Shown in pieces: positions 4,148-16,248 of a stretch of 16,378 bases of DNA (positions are counted from its first letter, which is position 1; every line of letters starts with the position of its first letter). The stretch is from Planctomycetota bacterium (lineage in GTDB: Bacteria; Planctomycetota; PUPC01; JACPCR01): NCBI GenBank assembly GCA_027625095.1, contig JAQBXN010000165.1:1-16378 (forward strand), given 5' to 3'. Both the position numbers and the translations under genes were made by a program. The notes under the pieces were generated by a model. It was not told the DNA's origin, searched no databases, and saw only the letters and a program-made list of their open reading frames with translations.

Positions 4148-6208
4148 ATGGCTCCTTTCATCGCCCTCGGATTCGCCGGATTTATTATCCTGGTCGGAAT
4201 CCTGATCCTGATTATTCGGTGCTATCGCAAAGTCTCACAGGGCACGGCGCTCATTATCAACCAGACCCGCGGCAAAGTGATCGTTTCCTTTACTGGCGGC
4301 GTGGTCATCCCGATCATTCACAAAGCTGAGTACATGGACATCTCTGTCAAGGCGATGGAGATTGACCGCAGCGGCTCGAACGGCCTCATCTGTGAAGACA
4401 ACATTCGCGCCGACATCAAAGTCACCTTCTATGTGCGTGTAAACAAAACCGAAGAGGACGTGAAACGAGTGGCCGGCCTCATCGGATGCGAGCGTGCTTC
4501 CAAACGGGACACCCTGGAAGAGCTCTTTTCCGCAAAGTTTTCAGAGGCACTGAAGACTGTCGGAAAGCAGATGGAGTTCACGACGCTGTTTACCGAGCGT
4601 GAGAAATTCAAGGAAGCCATCATAAATATCATCGGCGCCGATTTGAACGGTTACAAGCTCGAAGACGTCGCCATCGATTATCTCGAGCAGACGCCTCTCG
4701 AATCCCTCGACGTAGACAACATCCTCGACGCTCAAGGTATCCGGAAGATCGTCGACCTTACCTCGATCGAATCCATCGCCACTAACAGTTTCCGGCGGAA
4801 CAAGGAGAAAACGATCAAGCAGCAGGACGTCGAAGCCAGGGAAACAATTCTCGAGCTGGAAAAGCAGCTGGCCGACGCCGAGGCCCGCCAGAAACGGGAG
4901 ATAGAAACCATCCAGGCCCGCGAACAAGCAGAAACCGAGAAAGTGCGCGCCGAAGAACATCTCAAGTACGAACGTGCCCAGATTCAGACCGCCGAAGAGT
5001 TGGCTGTTGCTCAAGAAAACAAACAGCGTCAGATTGAGATTGCACGTAAAGCCCGTGAACGCGCCGTATTGGTGGAGGGAGAACGAGTCGAACGCGACCA
5101 GCAGCTCGAGGCGGTTGAACGTATTCGCCTTGTCACACTGAAGGACATCGAGAAGGAAAAGGCCGTCGAGATCGAGAAGAAGAACATTCAGGAGGTCATC
5201 CGCGAACGCGTCATCGTTGAGAAGGGCGTTGCTGTGGAACAGGAGAAAATCAAGGACACAGTCGAGCTCGCCGGCGCCGAACGTCAGCGCCAAATCCAGG
5301 TAATCGCCGCGCAGCGTGAGGCTGAGGAAAACATGGTTATCGAGGTCAAGGCCGCGGAAGCCAAGGAAAAGGCCGCTAAGAGTCTTTACGAAGAGGCTAT
5401 TACTCAGGCCGAGGCAAGACACCTCTCTGCGATCAAAGAATCCGAGGCCAAAAAGGTGCTCGCCGAAGGCATTATCGCCGAGCGTTCCGCTGAAGGACTG
5501 GCGCAGGTAAGAGTCCGAGAATCCGAGGCCAACGCTATCGAGCTGCAGGGCAAGGCAGAAGCCTCGGCCGCGATGGAAAGGGCGAAGGCAGACGCATTTG
5601 CAATCGAGTCAAGGGGTGGAGCTGAAGCCAAGGCAGCGTCCGCCAATTACCACGCTAAGGCCCAGGGCATTGAAATCACCGGCTTCGCAGAGGCCAAGGC
5701 CATCGACCAGAAGGCCGAGGCCATGAAAAAATTCGACGCGGTCGGTCAGGAGCACGAGGAATTCAAGCTCCGGCTCGGTAAACAGGAACGTGTCGAAATT
5801 GCTCAGATCGACGTCAACCGCCAGATCGCCGAGGCCCAGTCCCGCATCCTCGGCGAGGCGTTGAAGTCAGCCAACATCGACATCGTCGGCGGCGATGGCC
5901 AGTTCCTGAACAACTTCTTCAAATCCATCACCCTGGCCAAGTCCCTGGACGGCTTCGTCGATAAGAGCGACGTCATTCAAAAGCTCTCTAACGGCGATAT
6001 CAACAGCCTGATGGCAAAGGTCAAAGACCTGATCGGCCGCGAAGGCCTGGGCTCGGAGGACATCAAGAATCTGACAGTCTCCGCTCTGCTGGCTCGCCTA
6101 GCCCTCAAGGGCAAGGACGACAACATCCGGGATGAGGCAACGGGTCTGCAGGGCCTGGTCAAGAGCCTCGGTGCGGAAGATCTGATGGCCATGTGGTTAG
6201 CGAAGTGA
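4148..6208 (+). CDS. flotillin-like SPFH/Band-7 domain protein (YqiK/FloT family) with long Glu/Ala-rich coiled coil
   Basis: An N-terminal membrane anchor (FIALGFAGFIILVGILILIIRCY) is followed by an SPFH domain (KVSQGTALIINQTRGKV…ISVKAMEIDRSG…DNIRADIKVTFYVRV). Then comes a ~270-aa EA-repeat coiled coil (…QLADAEARQKREIETIQAREQAETEKVRAEE…) and a C-terminal flotillin tail. GGAGGGG RBS at 4133-4139. The minus-strand ORF 4541-5422 is a low-complexity shadow of the EA repeats. Confidence 0.9.
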   Translation: MAPFIALGFAGFIILVGILILIIRCYRKVSQGTALIINQTRGKVIVSFTGGVVIPIIHKAEYMDISVKAMEIDRSGSNGLICEDNIRADIKVTFYVRVNKTEEDVKRVAGLIGCERASKRDTLEELFSAKFSEALKTVGKQMEFTTLFTEREKFKEAIINIIGADLNGYKLEDVAIDYLEQTPLESLDVDNILDAQGIRKIVDLTSIESIATNSFRRNKEKTIKQQDVEARETILELEKQLADAEARQKREIETIQAREQAETEKVRAEEHLKYERAQIQTAEELAVAQENKQRQIEIARKARERAVLVEGERVERDQQLEAVERIRLVTLKDIEKEKAVEIEKKNIQEVIRERVIVEKGVAVEQEKIKDTVELAGAERQRQIQVIAAQREAEENMVIEVKAAEAKEKAAKSLYEEAITQAEARHLSAIKESEAKKVLAEGIIAERSAEGLAQVRVRESEANAIELQGKAEASAAMERAKADAFAIESRGGAEAKAASANYHAKAQGIEITGFAEAKAIDQKAEAMKKFDAVGQEHEEFKLRLGKQERVEIAQIDVNRQIAEAQSRILGEALKSANIDIVGGDGQFLNNFFKSITLAKSLDGFVDKSDVIQKLSNGDINSLMAKVKDLIGREGLGSEDIKNLTVSALLARLALKGKDDNIRDEATGLQGLVKSLGAEDLMAMWLAK

Positions 6209-6236
6209 ACGTAATACGTAATACGTAATACGTAAT
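6209..6236. repeat. tandem heptamer repeat (ACGTAAT)x4 – left arm of an inverted-repeat pair
   Basis: Four perfect ACGTAAT units run from 6209 to 6236, directly abutting the flotillin stop codon (TGA 6206-6208). Each unit junction creates the palindrome TACGTA. Confidence 0.9.
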
Positions 6237-6304
6237 CAGACTCCTCGCTCGATACCATCTACTCACGCCACCTCACCCTCAGGAGTATGAACTACTAGGA
6301 TTGG

Positions 6305-6784
6305 TTGAATTCAGTTCCCGCAGCGATCAGTGAAGATGTGGTGTGGAAAATTACCGCCTACAGGTACGCCTTGTTTATTAGTGAGCTAGCTTGGGTGGAC
6401 TGTGAAAACCTCAACAAGCATCGCCTTGCGAGGAACAATTCCAGCCAGTTGATCAGGGCTGCGGGTTCGATCAGTGCGAATATAGAGGAAGGTTTCTCCC
6501 GCAAATCAGACAAGGATATAGCTCGTATGTACGAATATGCATTGGGTTCAGCAAGAGAGACAAGAGGCTGGTACTACGAATCCAGACACGCTCTCGGAGA
6601 TGAGGTGGCTGACCACCGAATGAAACTTCTTAGAGAGGTCATACAACTGCTGTTAACAATGATCCCTGAGAGAAGAAACTCATACAAAGTCAGAGAATCA
6701 GAAGTCATATATGAAACCAGTCCAAGTGGAAGTGGAGTTGAAGAATTTCAGGACATCCTAAACAACGTCCCAATGCCAGATTAA
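6305..6784 (+). CDS. four-helix-bundle protein of the 23S rRNA intervening-sequence protein family (TIGR02436 / PF05635; DGR Avd-like fold)
   Basis: Family hallmark blocks are present: …WKITAYRYALFISELAWV… (helix 1), QLIRAAGSISANIEEGFSRKSDKD (matches the conserved Q[IL]RRAA.SI.SNIAEG..R.S.K[DE] block), YEYALGSARETRGW (matches A.GS..E.). A ~40-aa C-terminal tail extends beyond the usual ~120-aa bundle. The start is probably TTG 6305 (AGGA at 6296-6299) or GTG 6338/6341; there is no in-frame ATG near the N-terminus. The gene is noticeably AT-richer than its neighbours. Confidence 0.75.
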   Translation: MNSVPAAISEDVVWKITAYRYALFISELAWVDCENLNKHRLARNNSSQLIRAAGSISANIEEGFSRKSDKDIARMYEYALGSARETRGWYYESRHALGDEVADHRMKLLREVIQLLLTMIPERRNSYKVRESEVIYETSPSGSGVEEFQDILNNVPMPD

Positions 6785-6794
6785 CAACTTTCTT

Positions 6795-6821
6795 ATTACG
6801 TATTACGAATTACGTATTACG
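6795..6821. repeat. tandem heptamer repeat ATTACGT-ATTACGA-ATTACGT-ATTACG – right arm, reverse complement of the 6209-6236 repeat
   Basis: The reverse complement of 6795-6821 is CGTAATACGTAATTCGTAATACGTAAT. This matches the upstream (ACGTAAT)4 array at 26 of 27 positions. It ends 4 nt before ATG 6826 of the giant ORF. Confidence 0.9.
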
Positions 6822-6825
6822 CCCC

Positions 6826-9800
6826 ATGGCCGAAGAAGACATCCAACCCAACACAGACGAGCAGCCTCAAGAAGGCCAAGCCCTCGAAGGTGGCGCTTAC
6901 GAGGTTCTCCGCAAACGGCTGCAAGCGCTTGACTCTCAGTTGGTGGATCGTCTCGAAAAACTGAATTCGAAGCGGAAAGAAACCTTCGGGGGGATGGACA
7001 GCCAGATTATCGGGAACGAACGAATTCACACCGATAACAATTGTATTCCCCGAGATCTTGTCGGGCTCGGCCATCTGCTGATCTTTGGCTACAACGTTTT
7101 TATTGGACTGAAAACTGAGACGAAACTGACGGACGTCTTCGCAGTTCATCGCTTCGATGGCGCTGAGTTTCAGGCTGTTGAGCCCACGATTATTGGTCAC
7201 CCGGATTTCATTCGTGATTTTCATGAACTCTACAAGTACTACAAGAACGCCAGATTTCTTCAGTTCGTAAAATCACCCGGTAAACTCCTGATTGTTTTCC
7301 AGGCCGGCGAAAGCATCACCGATAACAAAATCTTCCGATTTCTCATCGAGCGTGATGAATCCCTGGTTTACATCGACGATCGGGGCGACGTCGAATACAA
7401 GCTGCCTGCGCAGCACGACTTCCGATGGACGGTCACTACCCGCGACGATCAGGTGTTCGGCGCCCACCCACACGTCTCCATTCGAGATCAGGTCTTTGTC
7501 GAAACCATCGGCGGCGATCTGACTATCAAAATTGAAGACAACACCCGCTCAGGCGAAGGCATCTACGCAGAGCCCGTCGAAGACCGCGATCAATCCCTCG
7601 ACGACGCGTTCATCGCCTATGCTGAAGTTGGTGACCTGATCCTTCTGAAGATTCTTCCGTATCGTGAAATCAAGTATCGATATATTGTCTTCAACTCAAA
7701 GGATCATTCAGCCGTTCGGATCGACTCCATCGAGCAGGCTTGCATACAGTTGCCGGAAGGACACGGCATAATTTTTCCCAAGGGCTATTACCTTCAAAAC
7801 GGAGTTTATCGGCAGTTTGATGAAGACGTCCAGGGCATGGTCTATCACGACTATATCTCCTCTCCGAACGGCGAGGACTACCTTTACGTCTTCTATCACC
7901 GCGAGCACGGACGCTACATCCTTCTCCAATACAACCTCATCTCCAAGGAGATTTCGAACCCAGTCTTCTGCCACGGCAAATCTTTGTACGAAGATGGAAA
8001 GATGGTGCTCTTCACCGCACCGGACCAAGAACCGCGCCGGAATCATCCGATGCAAATCTGGCAAACGCCGTTTTACGGGGATGCGTACGATGTTCCGCTC
8101 AAAGCGGACACGTTCCTCACGAAGGTAGGTAACCGCGATCTGGTGCGCGGCATTTCGGAGGGATTCACTATCAGTCGGCTCGTCCAGACAGAACGCGCCA
8201 CGCTGACAACTTACGAAGATCTGATTACCTCGTGTACCAACATGATGGACGGGTATCACTGGCTCGCCCATGAGGAAACATTCAATGTTCGGGAGATAGT
8301 TGTCGAAGTCAAGAGCGCCGGCATTGCTGCCATTGATGAGTACGAAAAGGTTCTCCGAATCAAGCAAAACACGGCTGGCCAGATCAAAGAGAACCAGGAA
8401 GCAGTTCGGAAATTGACCCTTGAGACCACACCCGACCGCATGCGCAGCATCGATGATTTCGTTAACGGGCTAAGCGAGATTCGAAGTCGCAGGGGCAAAG
8501 TCATTTCTTTGCGCGAGCTCCGATATGCAGATCTGCCGGCCATCGAAGCGATGGACCAACAGCTCGAAAGGTCCAACGAGGATGTCTCGATCGGCTGCGT
8601 TGATTACCTGCTCCTGCCAGATTCGCTGAATCCATACATTGATCGGAACCAGGAGATCGAATCCGGACTGGGCGAAATCCAGAAGGTGGCGGAACTAAAA
8701 GATGAGCATAAACAACTCGAAGACCTGGCATCAAGACTCGACCTGCTTACAGATATCGTCAATAACCTGAATATCGAAGATGCCACCAAGACCACGCAGA
8801 TTGTCGATGCGATCACAGACGTTTATTCCGGAGTAAATCGCACCAGAGCCCAGATCCGAAACCTGCATCAGGATCTCGGCAAAGCCGAGGCCCGGGCCGA
8901 GTTCGCCGCGCAATACAAATTGCTCAGCCAGAGTATTACCAACTACATCGGCATGTGTGATTCAGTCGAAAAGTGCGACGAATTTCTCACCAAATTAATG
9001 ATCACTATCGAAGAGCTTGAGGGCCGCTTTTCGGACTTCGAAGAATTCGCGGAGAAGCTCGCGGAGAAACGTGAAGAGGCATACAACGCGTTCTCAAACC
9101 GCAAGCAGGTGCTCGACGAAGAGCAGAAGCGAAAGGTCGGGGCGCTCATCTCCTCTGCCGAACGAATCCTGAAAGGGATCATCAACCGGGCCGAGAGCTT
9201 CAGCAATGTAGATGAGGTCAACGCATACTTCGCATCGGATCTGATGGTCTCGAAGCTTCGGGACATTATTAAGCGCTTCTATGACATGGATGAATCGGTC
9301 AAGGCCGATGATTTTTCCGGTCGCTTGAAAAGCACCAAGGACGAAATTCTCCGCCGTCTGCGAGACAAGTTAGACCTGTTCGAAGGAGGCGATAACGTTA
9401 TTTCATTCGGTGATTACAAATTCACCGTCAACACGCAGAAGCTGGAACTCACTACTGTACTGCGTGACGAGGAAATGCTCTTCCATCTGACCGGAACGGA
9501 TTATTACGAGGAAATTCGAGACGAAGAGTTTCTTAAGACTCGTGAGTTGTGGCGGCAGGAAATCATCAGCGAGAACCGTGATGTGTACCGGGGAGAATAT
9601 CTCGCTTATAAGATCTTGATGGCCGCGGCGAACAATAAAGACGGTTTCATCCTGACAGAACTAACCGAACTGGTAAGTGAAGAGAAAACGCTCCTTGATC
9701 GTGTGCGCGCTTATTCGGGGAGCCTCTATAACGAAGGCTACGACAAGGGTATTCACGACTGTGACGCGACAAAAATTCTGCAGGCTCTGATCGGGCTGTA

Positions 9801-11880
9801 TAACACTACCGCCTTGCTGCGTTACGATTCAGAGTCCCGGGCCTTTGCCATCCTTTTCTGGTGCTTCTACCCGGACAAAGAGGAGAAGCTCCAGCTCCGC
9901 AATAAACTCAGAAGCTTCGGTGCGCTGGGCAAGATATTCGAATTCAAGGATGTGAACCCGGCTTATGTCATTGAAATTCGAAACGCAATGGGGCCGTTCT
10001 TTGAAAGCCTCGGAAGGAAGGTCTGCGGCCCGACCCTGAGTCTGGCAGCGGAGTATCTCTACAACGAACTGCAGGACAGCGATCTCCTGGAGTTCACGAT
10101 TAACGCTCTCGCGCAGGAGTTACATGACCATTTCTTCGACTATCTCGCCAAGAAGGGCAAAGACGAAGATTTTAGGTCCGACATTGGTGCGCTGAACGGC
10201 AGCACAAAACCACAAATCGATCTGATTCATGATTGGGTCTCAACCTACGTGCGCACTCAGGAAGATGCAGACTCCGGGCATTTTGTGTGGGAGGTTGTTG
10301 CGCTCATTGCCGCGGGTGAGGTGATTAATCGTGATACTACGTCTGTGACGACGTTCGCTGAGGTAGACGGCCTGCTTGGCCAGCATCGGCTTATTGGAAA
10401 CAAGAAACTCAAGATTCATTTCGATCTGTTCCTGATTCGCCTCAAACAGTTCGCAGAGGAGCAAGTGCCTCTGTTTCAAAAGTACCAGCAACTTCGAACT
10501 CAACTCACCCAGGCGCGTCGCAAGGAACTCAGACTTTCCGAATTTGAGCCGAAGGTCATGGGATCATTTGTGCGCAATAAATTGATAAATGACGTTTACC
10601 TGAATCTGGTGGGCGCTAACTTCGCTAAACAGATGGGGGCGGCCGGCGATTCAAAGCGGACGGATCTGATGGGACTGCTGCTGCTCATCTCCCCGCCGGG
10701 TTACGGCAAAACCACTCTGATGGAATACATCGCCAGTCGTCTCGGACTTACCTTCATAAAGATTAACGGCCCTGCTATTGGACATGCAGTGACGTCGCTC
10801 GATCCGGCTGAAGCCACGAATGCAACCGCACGGGAAGAATTGCAGAAGCTCAATCTCGCCTTTGAGATGGGCAACAACATCATGATCTACCTGGATGACA
10901 TCCAGCATTGTAATCCGGAACTCTTGCAGAAATTCATCTCACTCTGCGACGGCCAGCGCAAAATCGAAGGTGTCTATAAGGGTAAGACCAAGACTTACAA
11001 CCTGCGCGGCAAGAAGGTCTCGGTCGTCATGGCCGGAAACCCATACACCGAGAGCGGTGATAAATTTCAAATCCCGGACATGCTCGCCAACCGTGCTGAC
11101 ACCTACAATCTGGGCGACATTTCCAGCACAGAGAGCAAAGCGTTTGAAATGAGTTTCATCGAAAATGCGATGACCTCGAATCCTGTGCTGAGCAAGATCA
11201 GCAGTCACGGCCACGATGACATTTACCGGCTCATGCAGATCGTCGAGACCGGCAGCCGGCAGGGAGTCGAGTTGGAACACGGCTATTCGTCCGAGGAGGT
11301 GACCGAGATAGTGAATGTCCTCAGCAAACTGTTTCGGGTCCGTGACGTAGTCCTGCGGGTCAATCAGGAATACATTTATTCAGCTGCGCAAGAAGACGAC
11401 TATCGTACCGAGCCGCCCTTCAGGCTCCAGGGCTCATATCGCAACATGAACCGTATCGCGGAGAAGATCTTTCCGGTGATGACAGATAAGGAAGTCGAAA
11501 GGTTGATTCTCGATAGCTACTACAACGAAGCCCAAACCCTGACCTCCGGCGCCGAATCCAATCTGCTCAAGTTCAAAGAGATCATTGAGATCCTCAGCGA
11601 AGAGGAAAAAAAACGCTGGTCAGCTATCAAGAGCGAATTCAATCGCCGCCAGTCACTCGCCGGTATGGACGACGAAGACGACATCGGAAAAGTCCTCTCC
11701 CAGCTCAGCGGCTTCAACAAAAACCTTGGCGACATGCGCGAAGTCATCGCGGGTGCAGCAAATTACCTCGCCCAGAATATGGACAAGGGCTTCAATCAAA
11801 ATCTGAAAATAGTAGTGGACGAAAACCTGCTCAAGATTCTGTCCAAGGGCAGCGCGGCCGTGAAAAAGGCGAAGGAGTAA
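6826..11880 (+). CDS. giant (1684 aa) multidomain protein with C-terminal MoxR/AAA_5-type AAA+ ATPase domain; the N-terminal ~1250 aa are uncharacterised (beta-rich N-terminal region, central coiled-coil/helical region)
   Basis: A single uninterrupted 5055-nt ORF. The C-terminal AAA+ module has Walker A LLISPPGYGKTTLMEY (Lys at nt 10708-10710), Walker B NNIMIYLDDIQH (DD at 10894-10899) and sensor-1 VSVVMAGNPYTESGDKF. An arginine-finger region IPDMLANRADTYNL fits the MoxR pattern NP.E..G.Y.LPEAQLDRF. A central region (~aa 560-800: …LERSNED…EIQKVAELKDEHKQLEDLASRLDLLTDIVNNLNIED…) looks coiled-coil. No Shine-Dalgarno precedes ATG 6826. Antisense ORFs inside it (7708-8367, 8256-8576, 10939-11280 and others) are rejected as shadows. 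Confidence 0.8.
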   Translation: MAEEDIQPNTDEQPQEGQALEGGAYEVLRKRLQALDSQLVDRLEKLNSKRKETFGGMDSQIIGNERIHTDNNCIPRDLVGLGHLLIFGYNVFIGLKTETKLTDVFAVHRFDGAEFQAVEPTIIGHPDFIRDFHELYKYYKNARFLQFVKSPGKLLIVFQAGESITDNKIFRFLIERDESLVYIDDRGDVEYKLPAQHDFRWTVTTRDDQVFGAHPHVSIRDQVFVETIGGDLTIKIEDNTRSGEGIYAEPVEDRDQSLDDAFIAYAEVGDLILLKILPYREIKYRYIVFNSKDHSAVRIDSIEQACIQLPEGHGIIFPKGYYLQNGVYRQFDEDVQGMVYHDYISSPNGEDYLYVFYHREHGRYILLQYNLISKEISNPVFCHGKSLYEDGKMVLFTAPDQEPRRNHPMQIWQTPFYGDAYDVPLKADTFLTKVGNRDLVRGISEGFTISRLVQTERATLTTYEDLITSCTNMMDGYHWLAHEETFNVREIVVEVKSAGIAAIDEYEKVLRIKQNTAGQIKENQEAVRKLTLETTPDRMRSIDDFVNGLSEIRSRRGKVISLRELRYADLPAIEAMDQQLERSNEDVSIGCVDYLLLPDSLNPYIDRNQEIESGLGEIQKVAELKDEHKQLEDLASRLDLLTDIVNNLNIEDATKTTQIVDAITDVYSGVNRTRAQIRNLHQDLGKAEARAEFAAQYKLLSQSITNYIGMCDSVEKCDEFLTKLMITIEELEGRFSDFEEFAEKLAEKREEAYNAFSNRKQVLDEEQKRKVGALISSAERILKGIINRAESFSNVDEVNAYFASDLMVSKLRDIIKRFYDMDESVKADDFSGRLKSTKDEILRRLRDKLDLFEGGDNVISFGDYKFTVNTQKLELTTVLRDEEMLFHLTGTDYYEEIRDEEFLKTRELWRQEIISENRDVYRGEYLAYKILMAAANNKDGFILTELTELVSEEKTLLDRVRAYSGSLYNEGYDKGIHDCDATKILQALIGLYNTTALLRYDSESRAFAILFWCFYPDKEEKLQLRNKLRSFGALGKIFEFKDVNPAYVIEIRNAMGPFFESLGRKVCGPTLSLAAEYLYNELQDSDLLEFTINALAQELHDHFFDYLAKKGKDEDFRSDIGALNGSTKPQIDLIHDWVSTYVRTQEDADSGHFVWEVVALIAAGEVINRDTTSVTTFAEVDGLLGQHRLIGNKKLKIHFDLFLIRLKQFAEEQVPLFQKYQQLRTQLTQARRKELRLSEFEPKVMGSFVRNKLINDVYLNLVGANFAKQMGAAGDSKRTDLMGLLLLISPPGYGKTTLMEYIASRLGLTFIKINGPAIGHAVTSLDPAEATNATAREELQKLNLAFEMGNNIMIYLDDIQHCNPELLQKFISLCDGQRKIEGVYKGKTKTYNLRGKKVSVVMAGNPYTESGDKFQIPDMLANRADTYNLGDISSTESKAFEMSFIENAMTSNPVLSKISSHGHDDIYRLMQIVETGSRQGVELEHGYSSEEVTEIVNVLSKLFRVRDVVLRVNQEYIYSAAQEDDYRTEPPFRLQGSYRNMNRIAEKIFPVMTDKEVERLILDSYYNEAQTLTSGAESNLLKFKEIIEILSEEEKKRWSAIKSEFNRRQSLAGMDDEDDIGKVLSQLSGFNKNLGDMREVIAGAANYLAQNMDKGFNQNLKIVVDENLLKILSKGSAAVKKAKE

Positions 11881-12362
11881 TGGTGACTGACAACCTTGAC
11901 CCCTTCGAAGAACTATGTGCAATTGTCGATACGCTAAATGAAGAGGGTATCGAGTTCGCAGTCTGTGGTGGCCTTGCTGTGGCCATCTACGGCTATGCTC
12001 GCACGACCCAGGATATCGATATCCTGGTCAAAGAAGAAGATCTCGAAAGCATACAAAACGTAGTCCGGCCTCTTGGATTTGACATCGCTTCAGGCTTTAT
12101 GCGATTCAATAGTGGCACCCCTGGTGAACGAACGATCTTCCGCATTCTGAAGATCGTTGGTTCTCACGATTTAATGTTAGATTTGATTCTTGTGGGCGAC
12201 TTCCATACCGAAGTCTGGGAAAGCAGATCAGTGGCGGAGTATCAGGGCAGGAAATTTTCGATAGTTTCACGGTTGGGATTGAAAAAGATGAAGGAAAAGG
12301 CTGGCAGAGCAAAGGACCTTACAGACATTGAAGAACTGGGCTTAAACAATGTCGGACAGTAA
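11880..12362 (+). CDS. minimal nucleotidyltransferase-fold protein (Pol-beta superfamily; AbiEii/DUF1814-like or MNT-like core)
   Basis: FAVCGGLAVAIYGYARTTQDIDILV fits the NTase-fold motif hG[GS]-x(9-14)-DhDh. It resembles the AbiEii core GGTAL…R.S.DIDF and the MNT block ARG…SDIDLLV. The C-terminal KEKAGRAKDLTDIEEL block is common in this group. The start ATG overlaps the stop of the giant gene (TAATG, 11878-11882), and AAGGAG lies at 11870-11875. Confidence 0.55.
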   Translation: MVTDNLDPFEELCAIVDTLNEEGIEFAVCGGLAVAIYGYARTTQDIDILVKEEDLESIQNVVRPLGFDIASGFMRFNSGTPGERTIFRILKIVGSHDLMLDLILVGDFHTEVWESRSVAEYQGRKFSIVSRLGLKKMKEKAGRAKDLTDIEELGLNNVGQ

Positions 12363-12783
12363 CGTAAACAAAGAGCCCGCTAGGGTAGATATGTCCCCTG
12401 AAGGCATAATCAATCGCTTGAAGAAATCGGCAGCCCTCTACCGCATGTCACTGAAACTTGGAATGTTCAGGCCTGCAAACGTGCCACAGTTCGTCGATCC
12501 GGATAAACGGCTTTTGCGCCTGCCCGATGAACTCATCAGGGACGAAGACGGCTTTCTTCGCGTGGCCGGTTCACGAGTCGGTTTTTTCCGTCTGGTCAGC
12601 CTCCATCGCAGCAAAGGCCTGGATGCCGTTGAACTCAATAAATACTTCTACGAGGAATATGACCGCCATGTATCAGTCTGTTATCTCATGGCGGTGCTGA
12701 AATTCTACGAAGAGAATAAAACAGTCATCGACCTTTACGTAGATTCTTACGAAGACGGTAAGTCCGAGGCACATTCTCGATAG
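12349..12783 (+). CDS. hypothetical 144-aa protein, overlapping partner of the nucleotidyltransferase-fold gene; possible HEPN-like partner (weak)
   Basis: The ORF overlaps the preceding gene by 14 nt (ATG 12349 inside …AACAATGTCGGACAGTAA). It contains an R-x4-H motif (FRLVSLHRSKG), loosely compatible with HEPN. It is predicted mostly helical with no TM segment. The 300-aa ORF on the opposite strand (12673-13575) is rejected. Confidence 0.45.
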   Translation: MSDSNVNKEPARVDMSPEGIINRLKKSAALYRMSLKLGMFRPANVPQFVDPDKRLLRLPDELIRDEDGFLRVAGSRVGFFRLVSLHRSKGLDAVELNKYFYEEYDRHVSVCYLMAVLKFYEENKTVIDLYVDSYEDGKSEAHSR

Positions 12784-12792
12784 ACCGCACCA

Positions 12793-15700
12793 ATGCCCAT
12801 CCCAATCCAATGCCCCAATCCGGAATGTAAGAAGAGTCTCAGCCTGCCAGAGGAGCACGCGGGCAAGGCAGTAAAGTGCCCTGCTTGTGGCAAGACGCTG
12901 AAGGTACCGGAAGGGATTACCAAGTACGGCGAATTCAAAATTGTGCGCCAGATAGGAAAGGGCGGAATGGGCACAGTTTATGAGGGTCTTCAGGTAAGCC
13001 TGCAGCGGCGAGTGGCGCTCAAGGTGCTCGACCCCAATTTCTCCAGCAATGCACGATACCTCGGGCGTTTTGTCCGTGAGGCAAGAGCTGCAGCGGCCAT
13101 CCAGCACCCGAACATTATCCAGGTGTTCGACATTGGCGAGGACAATGGAAGACATTTCTTCGCCATGGAATTCGTGGAAGGCGAAAACGCTTTTGAAAAA
13201 CTTAAGCGTGATGGAGCGTTTTCCGTCAGGGCTGGCCTCGAGATCGCTGGCCAGATTGCGAAAGCGCTTCAGGCCGCGGGGAAGCAGTCCATCATCCATC
13301 GGGATATCAAGCCGGACAACATCATGCTGGGCCGGGAAGGCCAGGTAAAACTTGCCGACCTCGGGCTTGCCAAAAATGTCGAAGATCAAACCACGGTCAC
13401 GCAGAGCGGCGCGGCCATCGGCACCCCACATTACATCGCGCCAGAACAAGCAAAAGATGCGGCCAATGTGGATCACAGAGCCGACATCTATGCACTCGGA
13501 GTAACCCTCCTGCATCTGCTTACAGGCAAGCGGCCATTTGACGGCGACAAGCCCTGGGACATTGTCGAAAAGCATGTGAACCAGCCACTGCCGAAAGGCG
13601 CCGACCTCGGCGTCGAACTCCCTGACGCGGTTGACCGGTTAATTCAGAAGATGGCGGCCAAGGAACCCGACAATCGTTTTCAGGACTACGAATCGCTGCT
13701 CACCGCAATTGAGACTGCCCAGAATGACAAGGAGGAAAAACGTCCTGAAAAGGTCATCCAGCAGCCCAAACTCAAACCGAGGCGTGATACGCCGCGCAAG
13801 AAGAAGATTCCAATCGCGCTTTATGCAGGGCTGACAGCAGCCATTGCTGTGGTCATTGGCATCACAGTAATGGTGTTCGATTCAGGAGGTCCTCAGCCGC
13901 ACCGTATGGTGGGTTACAAGAAAATAGAGAAGACGGTTGCCTCTACGACCACCATCCCCAAGCCGCCCTCCGCCGGTCAAGTCCCTCCCAAGACGACCTT
14001 TGCGACCTTCAAGGAGGTTAATGACTATGTAAAAGAAAATCCGGACGCCTATGGCGAAATCATCGGGATGTATCGAAAGATCTCGGACAGCATCGACAAC
14101 GTCAATGACAAAATGCGGGCGGACGCACTCATCAACTCATGGAAAAGAAAATGGGAGGAAGCTGCGGCCGAGGCCCTCAACGGAACTCAAAATAACGTGA
14201 AGGCTCATCTCGCAGCATCGCAGTTCGGGATGGCCCAGACTGCTTTGAATGACTTCCCGGTTGCATTGCTTCATCAGGGTGTAGTGGAAGAAATTGATAA
14301 GCTCCGGTTGCAGATTGAAGCAGCCAAAGACGCGTTTATCGCCGAACTTAAGTCACGCGGAAAGCCGATTCTTGAAAAAGAGCCCGGCGATCTCTCCCGT
14401 GAAGATATTTCCACCTTGAACTGGGTATTGAAGCGAACCCAAAGTGGCGAACTCGGCCTTTCTTTTCTCCAAGCGAAGGAAGTTCGTGATTTTTCGAAGC
14501 AAGTCTCTTCTGCAGTATCCCGATACAGAGCACATGAAGACAGACGAATCGCACTTAAGAGTCAATTCTGGGATTCCTATCGGCGTCTCATTACAAGCAA
14601 GCAGTTCGAGCAGGCACGCACGACCGTCCAGGAGGCCGAACCTCTGGAGGCGGAGGAAAAGAGCCTGCTGATCAGGCACACCTCTCTGATCGAAAAATCA
14701 CTTGAACCGGCAGCCAGAAATATGCCCCTTGAAAAGGCGCTCCATCAATTTCACTTCGGCGAAGAGAGGGATTCTATCCCTGAATTCGAGCTCGCATCGA
14801 AATCCGGACAAGATGTCCGTTTATATCTTCACCTGCTGGGTGCAGATTTGCCGGAATGGATGAGTGGTGCTTTTGAGATTCCAGAGGAATCAGAGGATAG
14901 TCACGGAAATCCCATTCGAAAAGGTGTGGATAAGAAGTCGGGGCTGCCATTTGAAATCCGTAATAGATCGTCCGGAATTCATTTCATGCTCCTTCCAGCC
15001 GGACAGTTCATGATGGGAAGTCCCGAAACTGAACAGGATCGCCACTCAGACGAAGGTCCATTACATCCTGTGGGAATCACCCGCCCTTTTTACATGGGCA
15101 AGTATGAGGTCACCGGTGCGGATTGGGAGAAGGCCAACGGAGCCAAATGGGCTTATGCTCGAGGCGAAGATTTCCCACTTACAGAGATTCGCAAATTGAC
15201 CGCAATGATGTTTGCCAGCCAGTTGAGCCGGCAACTGGCCGGAGGACGGCTTCGACTGCCGACTGAAGCCGAATGGGAATATGCATGCCGGGCCGGCAGC
15301 ATCACGCCTCTGCATTACGGCACAGATCCGGAATATGCAATGACCGCGGACTACGGGTGGTTCAAAGAGAATTCCGGCGGCAAGGTTCGACCGGCCGGGA
15401 TGAAGAAACCGAATGACTGGGGTCTCTACGACATGATCGGAAACGTCTGGGAATATGTTCTCGACAACTACGATGTCTACCCTACTGAACCGGAGACTGA
15501 CCCTTACTATCCGCCCATTGGAACGATCCCGCGCACCATCCGAGGCGGCGGTGTTTTATCTGATGCCGGCCAGTTGAGATCTGCCGAGCGCAGTAGAAGC
15601 AGGTTTGGGGCCAGTGATGAGAGCAACGGATTCAGGCTAATGCTCGAGCAGTCGCGCAAAGAGCACCAGGTACCTGGCATGCCGAACCCGGTTTTCAAAA

Positions 15701-16248
15701 ACCTGTTTAAGGCCAGAGAGCAGAAATCATGGGTGCGCTCGGGCGATGGCTTTTTTAATTGGGGATCAGGCCTCGGCTGGACGGACGGTGGCCCTGGCGG
15801 CATTGTCTATACCGCAAAGAAATATCAAAATTTCATCCTCAGATTCGATTGCCTGGCCAGCGATCTCTTGAAATCGGATGCCGGCATTTTCTATCCCATG
15901 AATGGACAGGACCTCACCAGGGATAAGACGGAGCACACCTTCAAAATCGAGCTGTCAGGCCCCAGGACCGGGTCAATTTCCCATAAAGACGAAACACTCC
16001 GATCCACCGAACTGCCACTCCAGCCGGGATGGAATTCCATCGAACTCATCGTATGGGAACGTGATGTCTATACCACCCGGGAGGGAGTTGCCCTTACCCA
16101 TTGGCAGCGACCCTCTGCTAAAGAAGGCCTCCTGGCAATCGAAGGAGTAGCACAACAGTTCTGTCTCAGGAATTTCAGAATCCTGGAATTGCAGCAGAAA
16201 CCGGCGGAGTTCATGAAAAGCCTCAATGACAAGGCGGCCGCGCTGTGA
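12793..16248 (+). CDS. membrane Ser/Thr protein kinase: N-terminal Zn-ribbon, Hanks-type kinase, single TM helix, FGE-sulfatase-like domain, C-terminal DUF1080-like (jelly-roll / 3-keto-disaccharide-hydrolase-like) domain
   Basis: Zn-ribbon CPNPEC…CPACG. Kinase motifs are GKGGMGTVY (P-loop), VALKVL (β3 Lys), HRDIKPDN (catalytic loop), KLADLG (DFG→DLG variant) and GTPHYIAPE. A K/R-rich linker precedes the TM helix IPIALYAGLTAAIAVVIGITVMVF. FGE-sulfatase-like blocks include FMLLPAGQFMMGSP, RLPTEAEWEYACRAGS, NDWGLYDMIGNVWEY and RGGG. The C-terminal GWTDGGPGG…FKIELSGP…GWNSIELIV block resembles DUF1080. The gene starts 9 nt after the previous ORF. Confidence 0.88.
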   Translation: MPIPIQCPNPECKKSLSLPEEHAGKAVKCPACGKTLKVPEGITKYGEFKIVRQIGKGGMGTVYEGLQVSLQRRVALKVLDPNFSSNARYLGRFVREARAAAAIQHPNIIQVFDIGEDNGRHFFAMEFVEGENAFEKLKRDGAFSVRAGLEIAGQIAKALQAAGKQSIIHRDIKPDNIMLGREGQVKLADLGLAKNVEDQTTVTQSGAAIGTPHYIAPEQAKDAANVDHRADIYALGVTLLHLLTGKRPFDGDKPWDIVEKHVNQPLPKGADLGVELPDAVDRLIQKMAAKEPDNRFQDYESLLTAIETAQNDKEEKRPEKVIQQPKLKPRRDTPRKKKIPIALYAGLTAAIAVVIGITVMVFDSGGPQPHRMVGYKKIEKTVASTTTIPKPPSAGQVPPKTTFATFKEVNDYVKENPDAYGEIIGMYRKISDSIDNVNDKMRADALINSWKRKWEEAAAEALNGTQNNVKAHLAASQFGMAQTALNDFPVALLHQGVVEEIDKLRLQIEAAKDAFIAELKSRGKPILEKEPGDLSREDISTLNWVLKRTQSGELGLSFLQAKEVRDFSKQVSSAVSRYRAHEDRRIALKSQFWDSYRRLITSKQFEQARTTVQEAEPLEAEEKSLLIRHTSLIEKSLEPAARNMPLEKALHQFHFGEERDSIPEFELASKSGQDVRLYLHLLGADLPEWMSGAFEIPEESEDSHGNPIRKGVDKKSGLPFEIRNRSSGIHFMLLPAGQFMMGSPETEQDRHSDEGPLHPVGITRPFYMGKYEVTGADWEKANGAKWAYARGEDFPLTEIRKLTAMMFASQLSRQLAGGRLRLPTEAEWEYACRAGSITPLHYGTDPEYAMTADYGWFKENSGGKVRPAGMKKPNDWGLYDMIGNVWEYVLDNYDVYPTEPETDPYYPPIGTIPRTIRGGGVLSDAGQLRSAERSRSRFGASDESNGFRLMLEQSRKEHQVPGMPNPVFKNLFKAREQKSWVRSGDGFFNWGSGLGWTDGGPGGIVYTAKKYQNFILRFDCLASDLLKSDAGIFYPMNGQDLTRDKTEHTFKIELSGPRTGSISHKDETLRSTELPLQPGWNSIELIVWERDVYTTREGVALTHWQRPSAKEGLLAIEGVAQQFCLRNFRILELQQKPAEFMKSLNDKAAAL

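Follow-up and report, generated by a model that had tools for sequence, protein, structure and literature searches.

A four-helix-bundle gene between inverted heptamer arrays at a planctomycetal operon junction: a probable member of a widespread cassette family

In a 16.4-kb stretch of DNA from a Planctomycetota bacterium (16,378 nt, referred to as the window), positions 6209 to 6821 hold a single gene for a four-helix-bundle (4HB) protein that lies between two oppositely oriented tandem arrays of a heptamer (the left and right arm) and that, together with these arms, takes up the entire gap between a gene for a flotillin-like protein and a gene for a DUF3686 ATPase. Comparisons with metagenomic relatives and with orthologous junctions indicate that this segment, in the following called the cassette, very probably belongs to a widespread family of heptamer-armed 4HB cassettes, and that, with the same high confidence, it entered the 7-11-nt spacer of two translationally close genes of an operon by insertion, in the ancestor of a clade of Planctomycetota. 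The copy in the window itself is old and vertically inherited and not a recent arrival.

With respect to membership in a family, a metagenome scan found at least 585 relatives among 600 candidates, and 80 loci were kept (loci and contigs are given as L numbers); the array statistics refer to 62 non-redundant loci with enough flanking sequence. The window protein belongs to a subfamily of about 155-170 amino acids (aa) with a conserved N-terminus MNYxEW, for which at least 486 protein clusters were counted at E <= 1e-5 among 500 candidates scored, and whose source names include Planctomycetota, Chloroflexota, Verrucomicrobiota, Bacteroidetes and Pontiella, the cassette family spanning Planctomycetota, Chloroflexota, Verrucomicrobiota, Kiritimatiellota, Bacteroidota and others. 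Arrays with a period of 7 nt were found upstream of the gene in 53/62 loci, downstream in 57/62 and on both sides in 50/62, at a background of 0.25 period-7 arrays per kb in the cassette-bearing contigs. Inverted orientation was seen in 48 of the 50 pairs, 31 of these having exactly complementary consensus units, and one unit was common to both arms in 34 of 57 loci, as compared with 8.1 +/- 2.4 (maximum 19, 2000 trials) when arms were re-paired between loci. The consensus of the units is R-C-G-T-R-A-W, to which ACGTAAT conforms, the arrays have a median length of 5 units, and the stems comprise a median of 27 positions, about 91% of them being Watson-Crick pairs. An inverted repeat built of tandem heptamers, which the original prediction had regarded as unusual, turns out to be the feature by which a large family of cassettes is recognised.

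In 36/36 loci the gene upstream of the cassette points in the same direction as the 4HB gene, the upstream array starts between -20 and +10 nt from the stop codon of this neighbour in 35/36, and the TRA of the first unit often doubles as that stop codon. The downstream neighbour is co-directional in 36/48 loci and usually starts 5-50 nt past the array. Since 7 is not a multiple of 3, a TRA triplet in the unit results in a stop in all three frames; of the upstream arrays, 50/64 have such three-frame stops in the sense strand and 4/64 in the antisense strand, and of the downstream arrays 50/65 have them in the antisense strand and 5/65 in the sense strand. A three-frame stop block as a universal rule was rejected, as 7/64 upstream arrays are stop-free in every frame (e.g., ACGTCAA, GCGTGTT), and for units of the ACGTAAT/ACGTATT type polarity is ambiguous. 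The window displays every feature of the family, i.e., a 4HB gene of the MNYxEW subfamily, inverted RCGTRAW arrays and a position immediately 3' of the stop of a gene that runs in the same direction.

At a number of family loci (L156, L157, L167, L172, L195, L205, L209, L194/L201) the last 30 nt before the array encode the sequence ...PVDALRNE*, which we take to be the C-terminus of FtsX/MacB-type ABC permeases; such hosts are either a favoured target, or they share one early insertion as members of a large family of paralogues. In Pontiellaceae bacterium B12219 (L215, 2455-2500) the 4HB gene lies 3' of metH, there is no downstream array, and the upstream units are degenerate (CGTGATG AGTGACG ATTGAAA CGTGAGG CGTGATT). 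This locus is apparently a decayed cassette, and B12219 as a cultured host with a clean cassette was rejected because of the degenerate upstream array.

The insertion is revealed by the comparison of filled and empty sites, the flotillin-like and DUF3686 ATPase gene pair being conserved across many phyla and present in all orthologous loci. The best homologues are annotated as Planctomycetota. At the empty site L213, where the flotillin is 74% identical, the junction reads GCGAAG-TGA-gggcgaa-ATG, so that a spacer of 7 nt with no repeat separates the two genes, and the stop context of the window flotillin, GCGAAGTGA, is found there as well. The empty sites L130/L131 from Lentisphaerae (flotillin 65% identical) have an 11-nt spacer, again with no repeat, and L125, L127, L129 and L214 (71-73% identical) have unrelated spacers of 173-531 nt which contain neither a 4HB gene nor heptamers. 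Filled sites comprise L115-L124, L212 and L134 (flotillin 86-89% identical), all of which carry the 4HB gene at exactly the same junction, and the CCCC-ATG that follows the cassette in the window also stands 3' of it in L115-L124. These cassette-free orthologous junctions bear out the earlier proposal of an insertion at the operon junction. No target-site duplication is visible in the comparison of filled with empty sites, the species being only 74% identical, so that a short duplication could have been erased.

As to the age of the insertion, the branching order of the 4HB proteins, (window,(L134,(L115,L212))), agrees with that of the flotillins, so that the cassette was acquired a single time and then passed on vertically. 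The 4HB gene has evolved faster than its flanks (74% versus 89% amino-acid identity), with third-codon identities of 0.40 for the 4HB gene and 0.57-0.65 for the flanks.

Within this clade the arms seem to have turned over in situ and yet to have stayed complementary. The window has (ACGTAAT)4 on the left and four units of the (ATTACGT) type on the right, L134 has (ACGTAAT)3(GAGTAAT)2 on the left and ACTCATT-ACTTATT-ACTCATT on the right, and L115 and L212 have ACGTAAT(GAGTAAT)3 on the left and (ACTCATT)3-ACGTATTACG on the right; it is thus the inner units that are altered, on both arms and complementary to each other, and the outermost ones that are unchanged. Accordingly, the cognate duplexes have energies of -37.9 kcal/mol in the window and -45.1 kcal/mol in L115, as compared with -25.9 and -26.3 kcal/mol for the two cross-species arm pairs (window x L115) and -8.9 +/- 2.8 kcal/mol for duplexes of shuffled arms. 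That the complementary differences between the arms of the window and those of L115 stem from a foreign cassette that was swapped in is not supported; despite the lower third-codon identity, turnover in situ is the simpler explanation, since the 4HB and flotillin trees agree.

In the window, the array of four ACGTAAT units and its inverse, described in the original prediction as bracketing a single gene, were confirmed from the sequence itself, by Tandem Repeats Finder and by a search for inverted repeats (Table 1). The native TGA stop codon of the upstream gene (6206-6208) abuts the left arm without a gap, and the inverted repeat found by the repeat search has a length of 31 nt with 94% complementarity (6210-6240 versus 6791-6821). 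At a score of >=30 in Tandem Repeats Finder the arm arrays, all with a period of 7 or 14, are the only tandem arrays in the window, and a 14-mer of the heptamer unit has 8 matches, all of them within the arms, against a chance expectation of 0.03 (8 being reached in 0/200 shuffles). The cassette sequence is identical at 651/651 positions across four independent assemblies, which comprise a JGI metagenome contig, a MAG from NCBI and assemblies from ENA. The description of the enclosed gene as visibly AT-richer holds in comparison with the two neighbours (a G + C content of 44.9% for the cassette versus 55.6% and 51.2%) but not with the small genes further downstream (46.8% and 49.4%), from which the cassette is not set apart.

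The independent Logan contigs L005 (6170-6197) and L006 (2455-2482), at positions corresponding to 6209-6236 of the window, both stop at the final base of the left arm, which suggests a branch in the assembly graph, due, e.g., to array-length variants in the population or to further copies of the repeat. Positions 5800-7200 have no Rfam match at E <= 1, so that the presence of a known RNA family at or near the cassette was rejected. In line with the original prediction, domain searches among the open reading frames (ORFs) of the window gave no transposase, integrase or HUH gene, nor a reverse transcriptase. A DDE_Tnp_1 transposase gene lies about 7 kb upstream of the cassette, beyond the window, on a contig of a metagenome-assembled genome (MAG) (L004, 4463-5209), and has no link to the cassette.

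Table 1. Layout of the cassette and its two host genes in the window
Feature	Positions	Strand	Description and basis
Upstream host gene	4148-6208	+	686-aa flotillin/YqiK-like protein; ORF list and names of homologues (flotillin family protein / YqiK)
Left arm	6209-6236	+	(ACGTAAT)4; fits the family unit RCGTRAW; TAA in all three sense-strand frames
Cassette leader	6237-6286	+	AGGAG at 6281-6285, immediately 5' of the ancestral ATG of the family
Relic of the family start	6287-6298	+	ATG AAC TAC TAG; DNA alignment with L115/L121, sequence of L134, family N-terminus MNYxEW
4HB gene	6305-6784	+	PF05635/TIGR02436; TTG 6305 (alternative GTG 6338) to TAA 6782-6784
Right arm	6795-6821	+	ATTACGT ATTACGA ATTACGT ATTACG; inverse of the left arm apart from one mismatch; stops in all three antisense frames
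CCCC and ATG of the downstream host gene	6822-6828	+	right arm ends 4 nt before the ATG at 6826
Downstream host gene	6826-11880	+	1684-aa DUF3686 / DUF7902 / AAA ATPase

The assignment of the enclosed gene to the protein family of 23S rRNA intervening sequences (IVSs), with a fold like that of the accessory protein Avd of diversity-generating retroelements (DGRs), is upheld by profile and structure comparisons. The ORF 6305-6784 matches PF05635 at E 2.4e-14 (53.9 bits, cutoff 33.8) and TIGR02436 at E 5e-17 (62.1 bits, cutoff 24), and a profile of the subfamily matches the Protein Data Bank (PDB) entries 2gsc (2e-5) and 2rld (1e-3), both of which are solved pentameric proteins. An AlphaFold (AF2) model of the window protein (pLDDT 84) has four long helices, and with this model Foldseek returned 2rld first (TMt 0.89, rmsd 1.7) and 2gsc next, followed by Avd chains of DGR ribonucleoproteins (TM 0.79); at the sequence level, the profile search of the PDB gave no match to Avd at E < 0.01. 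The motif RxxxSxxxNxxE, which reads R-AAG-S-ISA-N-IE-E in the window protein, is kept across the alignment of the subfamily, and the leading G of the published motif GxxRxxxSxxxNxxE (Zhang et al. 2014) is missing in this subfamily of ~160 aa.

Relative to an orthologue the gene has a pN of 0.144 and a pS of 0.889, and the protein is, judging from these values, under purifying selection. Its start differs from that of the family in that codon 4 of the ancestral frame is TAG in the window (6296-6298) and CAA or CAG in the orthologues, L134 reading atgaactatcag at this place, and in that the second Met codon of the family is TTG (6305); all four assemblies agree on the altered start. The change to TAG also creates an AGGA 4 nt 5' of the TTG. 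Either translation restarts at TTG 6305 or GTG 6338, or the gene is starting to decay. The leader of the window (6237-6286) could not be aligned with the leader of the orthologues. Membership of the 4HB gene in a defence system was rejected, as PADLOC gave no match, and so was carriage by plasmids or phages, since relatives are absent from plasmids at 1e-10 and from viral contigs.

Other members of the family show how the cassette multiplies. On contig L199 two cassettes that are about 95% identical over arms and gene lie 3.5 kb apart, and as their identity stops at the outer array ends, arms and gene therefore duplicate as one unit. The suggestion of a mobile element fits the family, copies of which duplicate within a genome, the copy in the window being an old and vertically inherited one. 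The same contig carries, at 6142-6238, a solo intergenic array of about 14 TTTCACG units, the unit of the L199 cassettes, having no 4HB gene and no partner arm. More distant 4HB genes are flanked by other inverted heptamers (GATATTG/CCAATAC at L180, GTCCGGA/CGGACTT at L102). The type of unit tracks the similarity of the proteins only weakly (66.5% versus 61.3% identity, 0/1000 permutations as extreme), the nearest relative having the same unit in 19/64 cases, and the length of the arrays varies between near-identical loci (12.1 units at L163, 10.1 at L169), which together imply a fast turnover of the arms.

Heptamer arrays are in turn not restricted to cassettes. The sequence (ACGTAAT)3 is present at more than 108 genome loci from many phyla, several per genome or MAG, most of them intergenic, with divergent promoter regions being under-represented. 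Among 108 of these loci, 70 are solo arrays, 27 are short-loop hairpins and 6 have a 4HB gene, each of these 6 genes being enclosed by inverted period-7 arrays. With 6/108, (ACGTAAT)n was rejected as a specific marker of 4HB genes, this number nevertheless being about 15 times a rough expectation that is itself based on assumed figures. Periods 7 and 14 also predominate among the other tandem repeats of cassette-bearing contigs. Unrelated period-7 units (GATATTG, GGAGATT, ATTAGAA, AAATCCG and others) were seen at L180 226-2537, L197 391-2855 and 7265-7289, L161 389-2773 and L189 1768-1894, and on L161 a 658-aa ORF lies between direct GCGTGAC arrays. Heptamer arrays thus appear to be a general feature of gene junctions in the genomes that bear cassettes.

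Taken together, we consider it somewhat more probable than an even chance that the cassette is a selfish element made up of a 4HB gene of ~160 aa with its own ribosome-binding site and of inverted RCGTRAW arrays, which has the RNA layout of an IVS. A consensus scan of 5900-7100 gave no promoter-like or terminator-like site, by which a promoter or an intrinsic terminator of the cassette's own was rejected; lacking a promoter, the cassette would be transcribed only when RNA polymerase reads on from the gene upstream. In the read-through transcript the two arms would pair to form a stem of ~27 bp from which the cassette is looped out, and the long-range arm stem foreseen in the original prediction is indeed present in the minimum free energy (MFE) and centroid folds computed for the RNA 6190-6840, its formation in vivo being probable. 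By analogy with the ORF-bearing IVSs of 23S rRNA, RNase III might cut this double-stranded RNA, a tentative step to which we would give slightly less than an even chance. Cleavage would free the 4HB mRNA and split the mRNA of the operon into a part with the flotillin gene and a part with the ATPase gene, and a stem that is left uncut would hold the two host cistrons near each other. The inward-facing TRA triplets of the arms would, in addition, halt incoming ribosomes in any frame.

However, a number of observations weigh against a selfish cassette with an IVS-like RNA layout. The fold of the whole transcript is not unusually stable (z = -1.4), and the mismatches in 53 stems show no bias in favour of RNA pairing (33 sense-strand G·U versus 43 A·C, p = 0.30), so that complementarity could be kept at the level of DNA, e.g., if one arm converts the other or if repair is templated within quasi-palindromes. 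One of the two arrays is missing in 12/62 family loci and also in L215, and given the stop in codon 4 the window protein may be N-terminally shortened or decaying. Finally, that the cassette is transcribed from upstream, that its stem forms in vivo and that RNase III cuts it is inferred.

As G·U pairs are not in excess, upkeep or mobility of the arms at the DNA level must therefore be regarded as a serious rival. By this account the arrays would be the ends of a mobile DNA element, acting as hairpins, cruciforms or recombination sites for an enzyme encoded elsewhere, with the 4HB gene as cargo or accessory and the RNA stem as a by-product. Besides the lack of an RNA wobble signature, the near-identical copies on L199 with their exact ends, the 27 hairpins and 70 solo arrays of the ACGTAAT unit and the shift in array length between L163 and L169 all fit with it. 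However, genes for a transposase, an integrase or an HUH protein are absent from the window, filled and empty sites reveal no target-site duplication, and the strict co-orientation in 36/36 loci would be unexpected unless imposed by selection; we regard this account as rather unlikely. It has likewise to be considered, with a somewhat lower probability still, that the 4HB protein, as an oligomer similar to the pentameric 2GSC, 2RLD and Avd, acts as a self-flanked regulator which binds heptamer arrays in RNA or DNA, its own arrays serving autoregulation and the others being targets, a role that would be compatible with a selfish cassette. To our knowledge, no binding data exist for PF05635 proteins outside DGRs. 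The tracking of protein similarity by the unit type, the divergent L180 paralogue and L102 with inverted heptamers of their own, the purifying selection on the protein and the presence of Avd chains in the DGR ribonucleoprotein (8ub7) speak in favour of such a regulator, which is at odds with the fast drift of the units between close orthologues whose proteins are still 74-79% identical, and with the sharing of a unit with the nearest relative in just 19/64 cases.

The other two explanations hardly compete. The resemblance of the fold to Avd chains (TM 0.79) could point to a remnant or accessory of a DGR, but there is no reverse transcriptase domain in any large ORF of the window and no pair of direct repeats resembling a template repeat (TR) and a variable repeat (VR), the sole direct repeat of >=30 nt being a 32-nt match with 72% identity. 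Moreover, in none of the 80 sampled loci did the architecture require a reverse transcriptase, and relatives are lacking in viral contigs; a connection with a DGR, for which a search had been proposed in the original prediction, is therefore very improbable. That an ordinary resident gene came to be flanked by repeats through chance slippage might be thought of, as intergenic tandem heptamers are common in many prokaryotes (bioRxiv 10.1101/309039), but this is refuted by the family-wide statistics, with 48/50 pairs inverted and units matched in 34/57 loci, by the shuffles, 0/200 of which reproduced the arrays, and by the existence of empty sites, and is the least probable explanation.

Structures of the PF05635 "IVS protein" family have been available since 2006, and the family has no known function outside DGRs, nor has the origin and spread of intervening sequences ever been explained. 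In the cassette family a PF05635 protein is brought together with heptamer arrays and with an IVS-like layout that lies outside rRNA, and the family may be part of the reason for the great frequency of 7-base repeats in the intergenic DNA of bacteria. More speculatively, and in our view rather doubtfully, the 4HB gene and its arms might constitute a class of autonomous mobile elements in which the protein recognises the arrays as RNA or DNA and promotes the spread of its own cassette or its excision at the RNA level, solo arrays and hairpins being footprints or non-autonomous derivatives. If this were true, the unexplained abundance of intergenic period-7 repeats would have a cause and the IVS-protein family, after 30 years, a function. 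For genome annotation, the cassettes would account for "four helix bundle protein" genes that are found wedged into unrelated operons, cas operons included, and often on contigs of ~1 kb.

With respect to the further gene content of the window, the ATPase gene is followed at 11880-12783 by overlapping genes for a 160-aa nucleotidyltransferase (weak matches to NTP_transf_5 / AbiEii) and for a 144-aa protein with no family; the two might form a toxin-antitoxin-like pair, and their divergence (~74% identity to the orthologue) is as fast as that of the 4HB gene. At 12793-16248 lies the gene for a 1151-aa protein with an N-terminal Ser/Thr kinase and with FGE-sulfatase and 3-keto-disaccharide-hydrolase-like domains; its kinase part matches PADLOC models of PD-T4-6 at 1.8e-87, which may reflect the generic kinase domain only. 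Upstream of the operon, at 763-1968, a MamK-family actin-like protein is encoded (NF040964, E 1.2e-95, under the equivalog cutoff). In the distant relatives L127-L131 (1-2972), genes for an AAA ATPase, a TerB-like and a YqiJ-like protein precede the flotillin/DUF3686 pair, a context which hints at a conserved module of larger size, of a membrane-stress or a defence-like type. In L003 the DUF3686 gene looks split because a scaffold gap filled with Ns lies within it.

In comparison with known systems, neither a description of the heptamer-armed 4HB architecture nor a paper linking PF05635 genes with intergenic heptamers was found in the searchable literature. Repetitive extragenic palindromes (REPs), the mosaic elements built from them (BIMEs) and miniature inverted-repeat transposable elements (MITEs) are short hairpin-forming multi-copy repeats in transcribed intergenic spacers after stop codons, REPs being tied to RAYT transposases, and MITEs to transposases of insertion sequences (IS) with target-site duplications. 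They differ from the cassette in that they are not tandem heptamers and do not enclose a gene, and for the cassette no transposase or target-site duplication was found. With Avd, whose chains in 8ub7/8ube rank behind 2rld and 2gsc in the structure comparison, the cassette protein shares the four-helix-bundle fold; it differs in having no sequence-level match to Avd at E < 0.01 and in the lack of a reverse transcriptase, a TR or a VR in the window.

Tandem heptamer repeats between genes are also known from cyanobacteria (STRR). Intergenic heptamers with a period of 7 have been found in many phyla, often adjoining start or stop codons, and have no known function (PMC4679880; bioRxiv 10.1101/309039); they include the TAACTGA repeats of Beggiatoaceae, Cyanobacteria and Bacteroidetes (PMC4679880), and have been called the 'most abundant intergenic periodic repeat' by Mori et al. 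(bioRxiv 10.1101/309039). These are direct arrays with no enclosed gene, whereas the cassette consists of arrays of opposite polarity, with units of a different family, around a protein gene. Genes of PF05635 have in turn been reported inside cas operons with very short gaps to their neighbours, e.g., between cmr3 and cmr2 in Pleurocapsa PCC 7327, where Zhang, Doak & Ye (2014) read them as candidate CRISPR-associated functions and did not mention flanking repeats or insertion (PMC3936711). They belong to the same protein family as the cassette gene and likewise lie between adjacent operon genes.

PF05635 genes have also been recorded in rRNA insertions, and the ORF-bearing IVSs of 23S rRNA in Leptospira and Coxiella, the latter with S23p, have this family in common with the cassette. 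The IVS of Coxiella burnetii is 428 nt long, carries the S23p ORF and has a terminal stem of 28 bp with one mismatch that is cut by RNase III in its middle, and IVSs have been regarded as selfish, their means of spread being unknown (PMC4990558). The window cassette is larger (613 nt as compared with 428-444 nt in Coxiella), and its host is an operon junction in an mRNA instead of an rRNA helix, none of the six genome cassettes residing in rRNA; it also differs from IVSs in that its arms are tandem RCGTRAW heptamer arrays and in that it begins at a stop codon. RNase III excision is known for the IVSs, and for the cassette it is inferred by analogy. Nevertheless, in both cases terminal inverted repeats can form a stem of ~28 bp with one mismatch, the orientation is that of the host transcript, and the distribution is sporadic with uninterrupted sites in relatives, as represented here by L213, L130 and L131.

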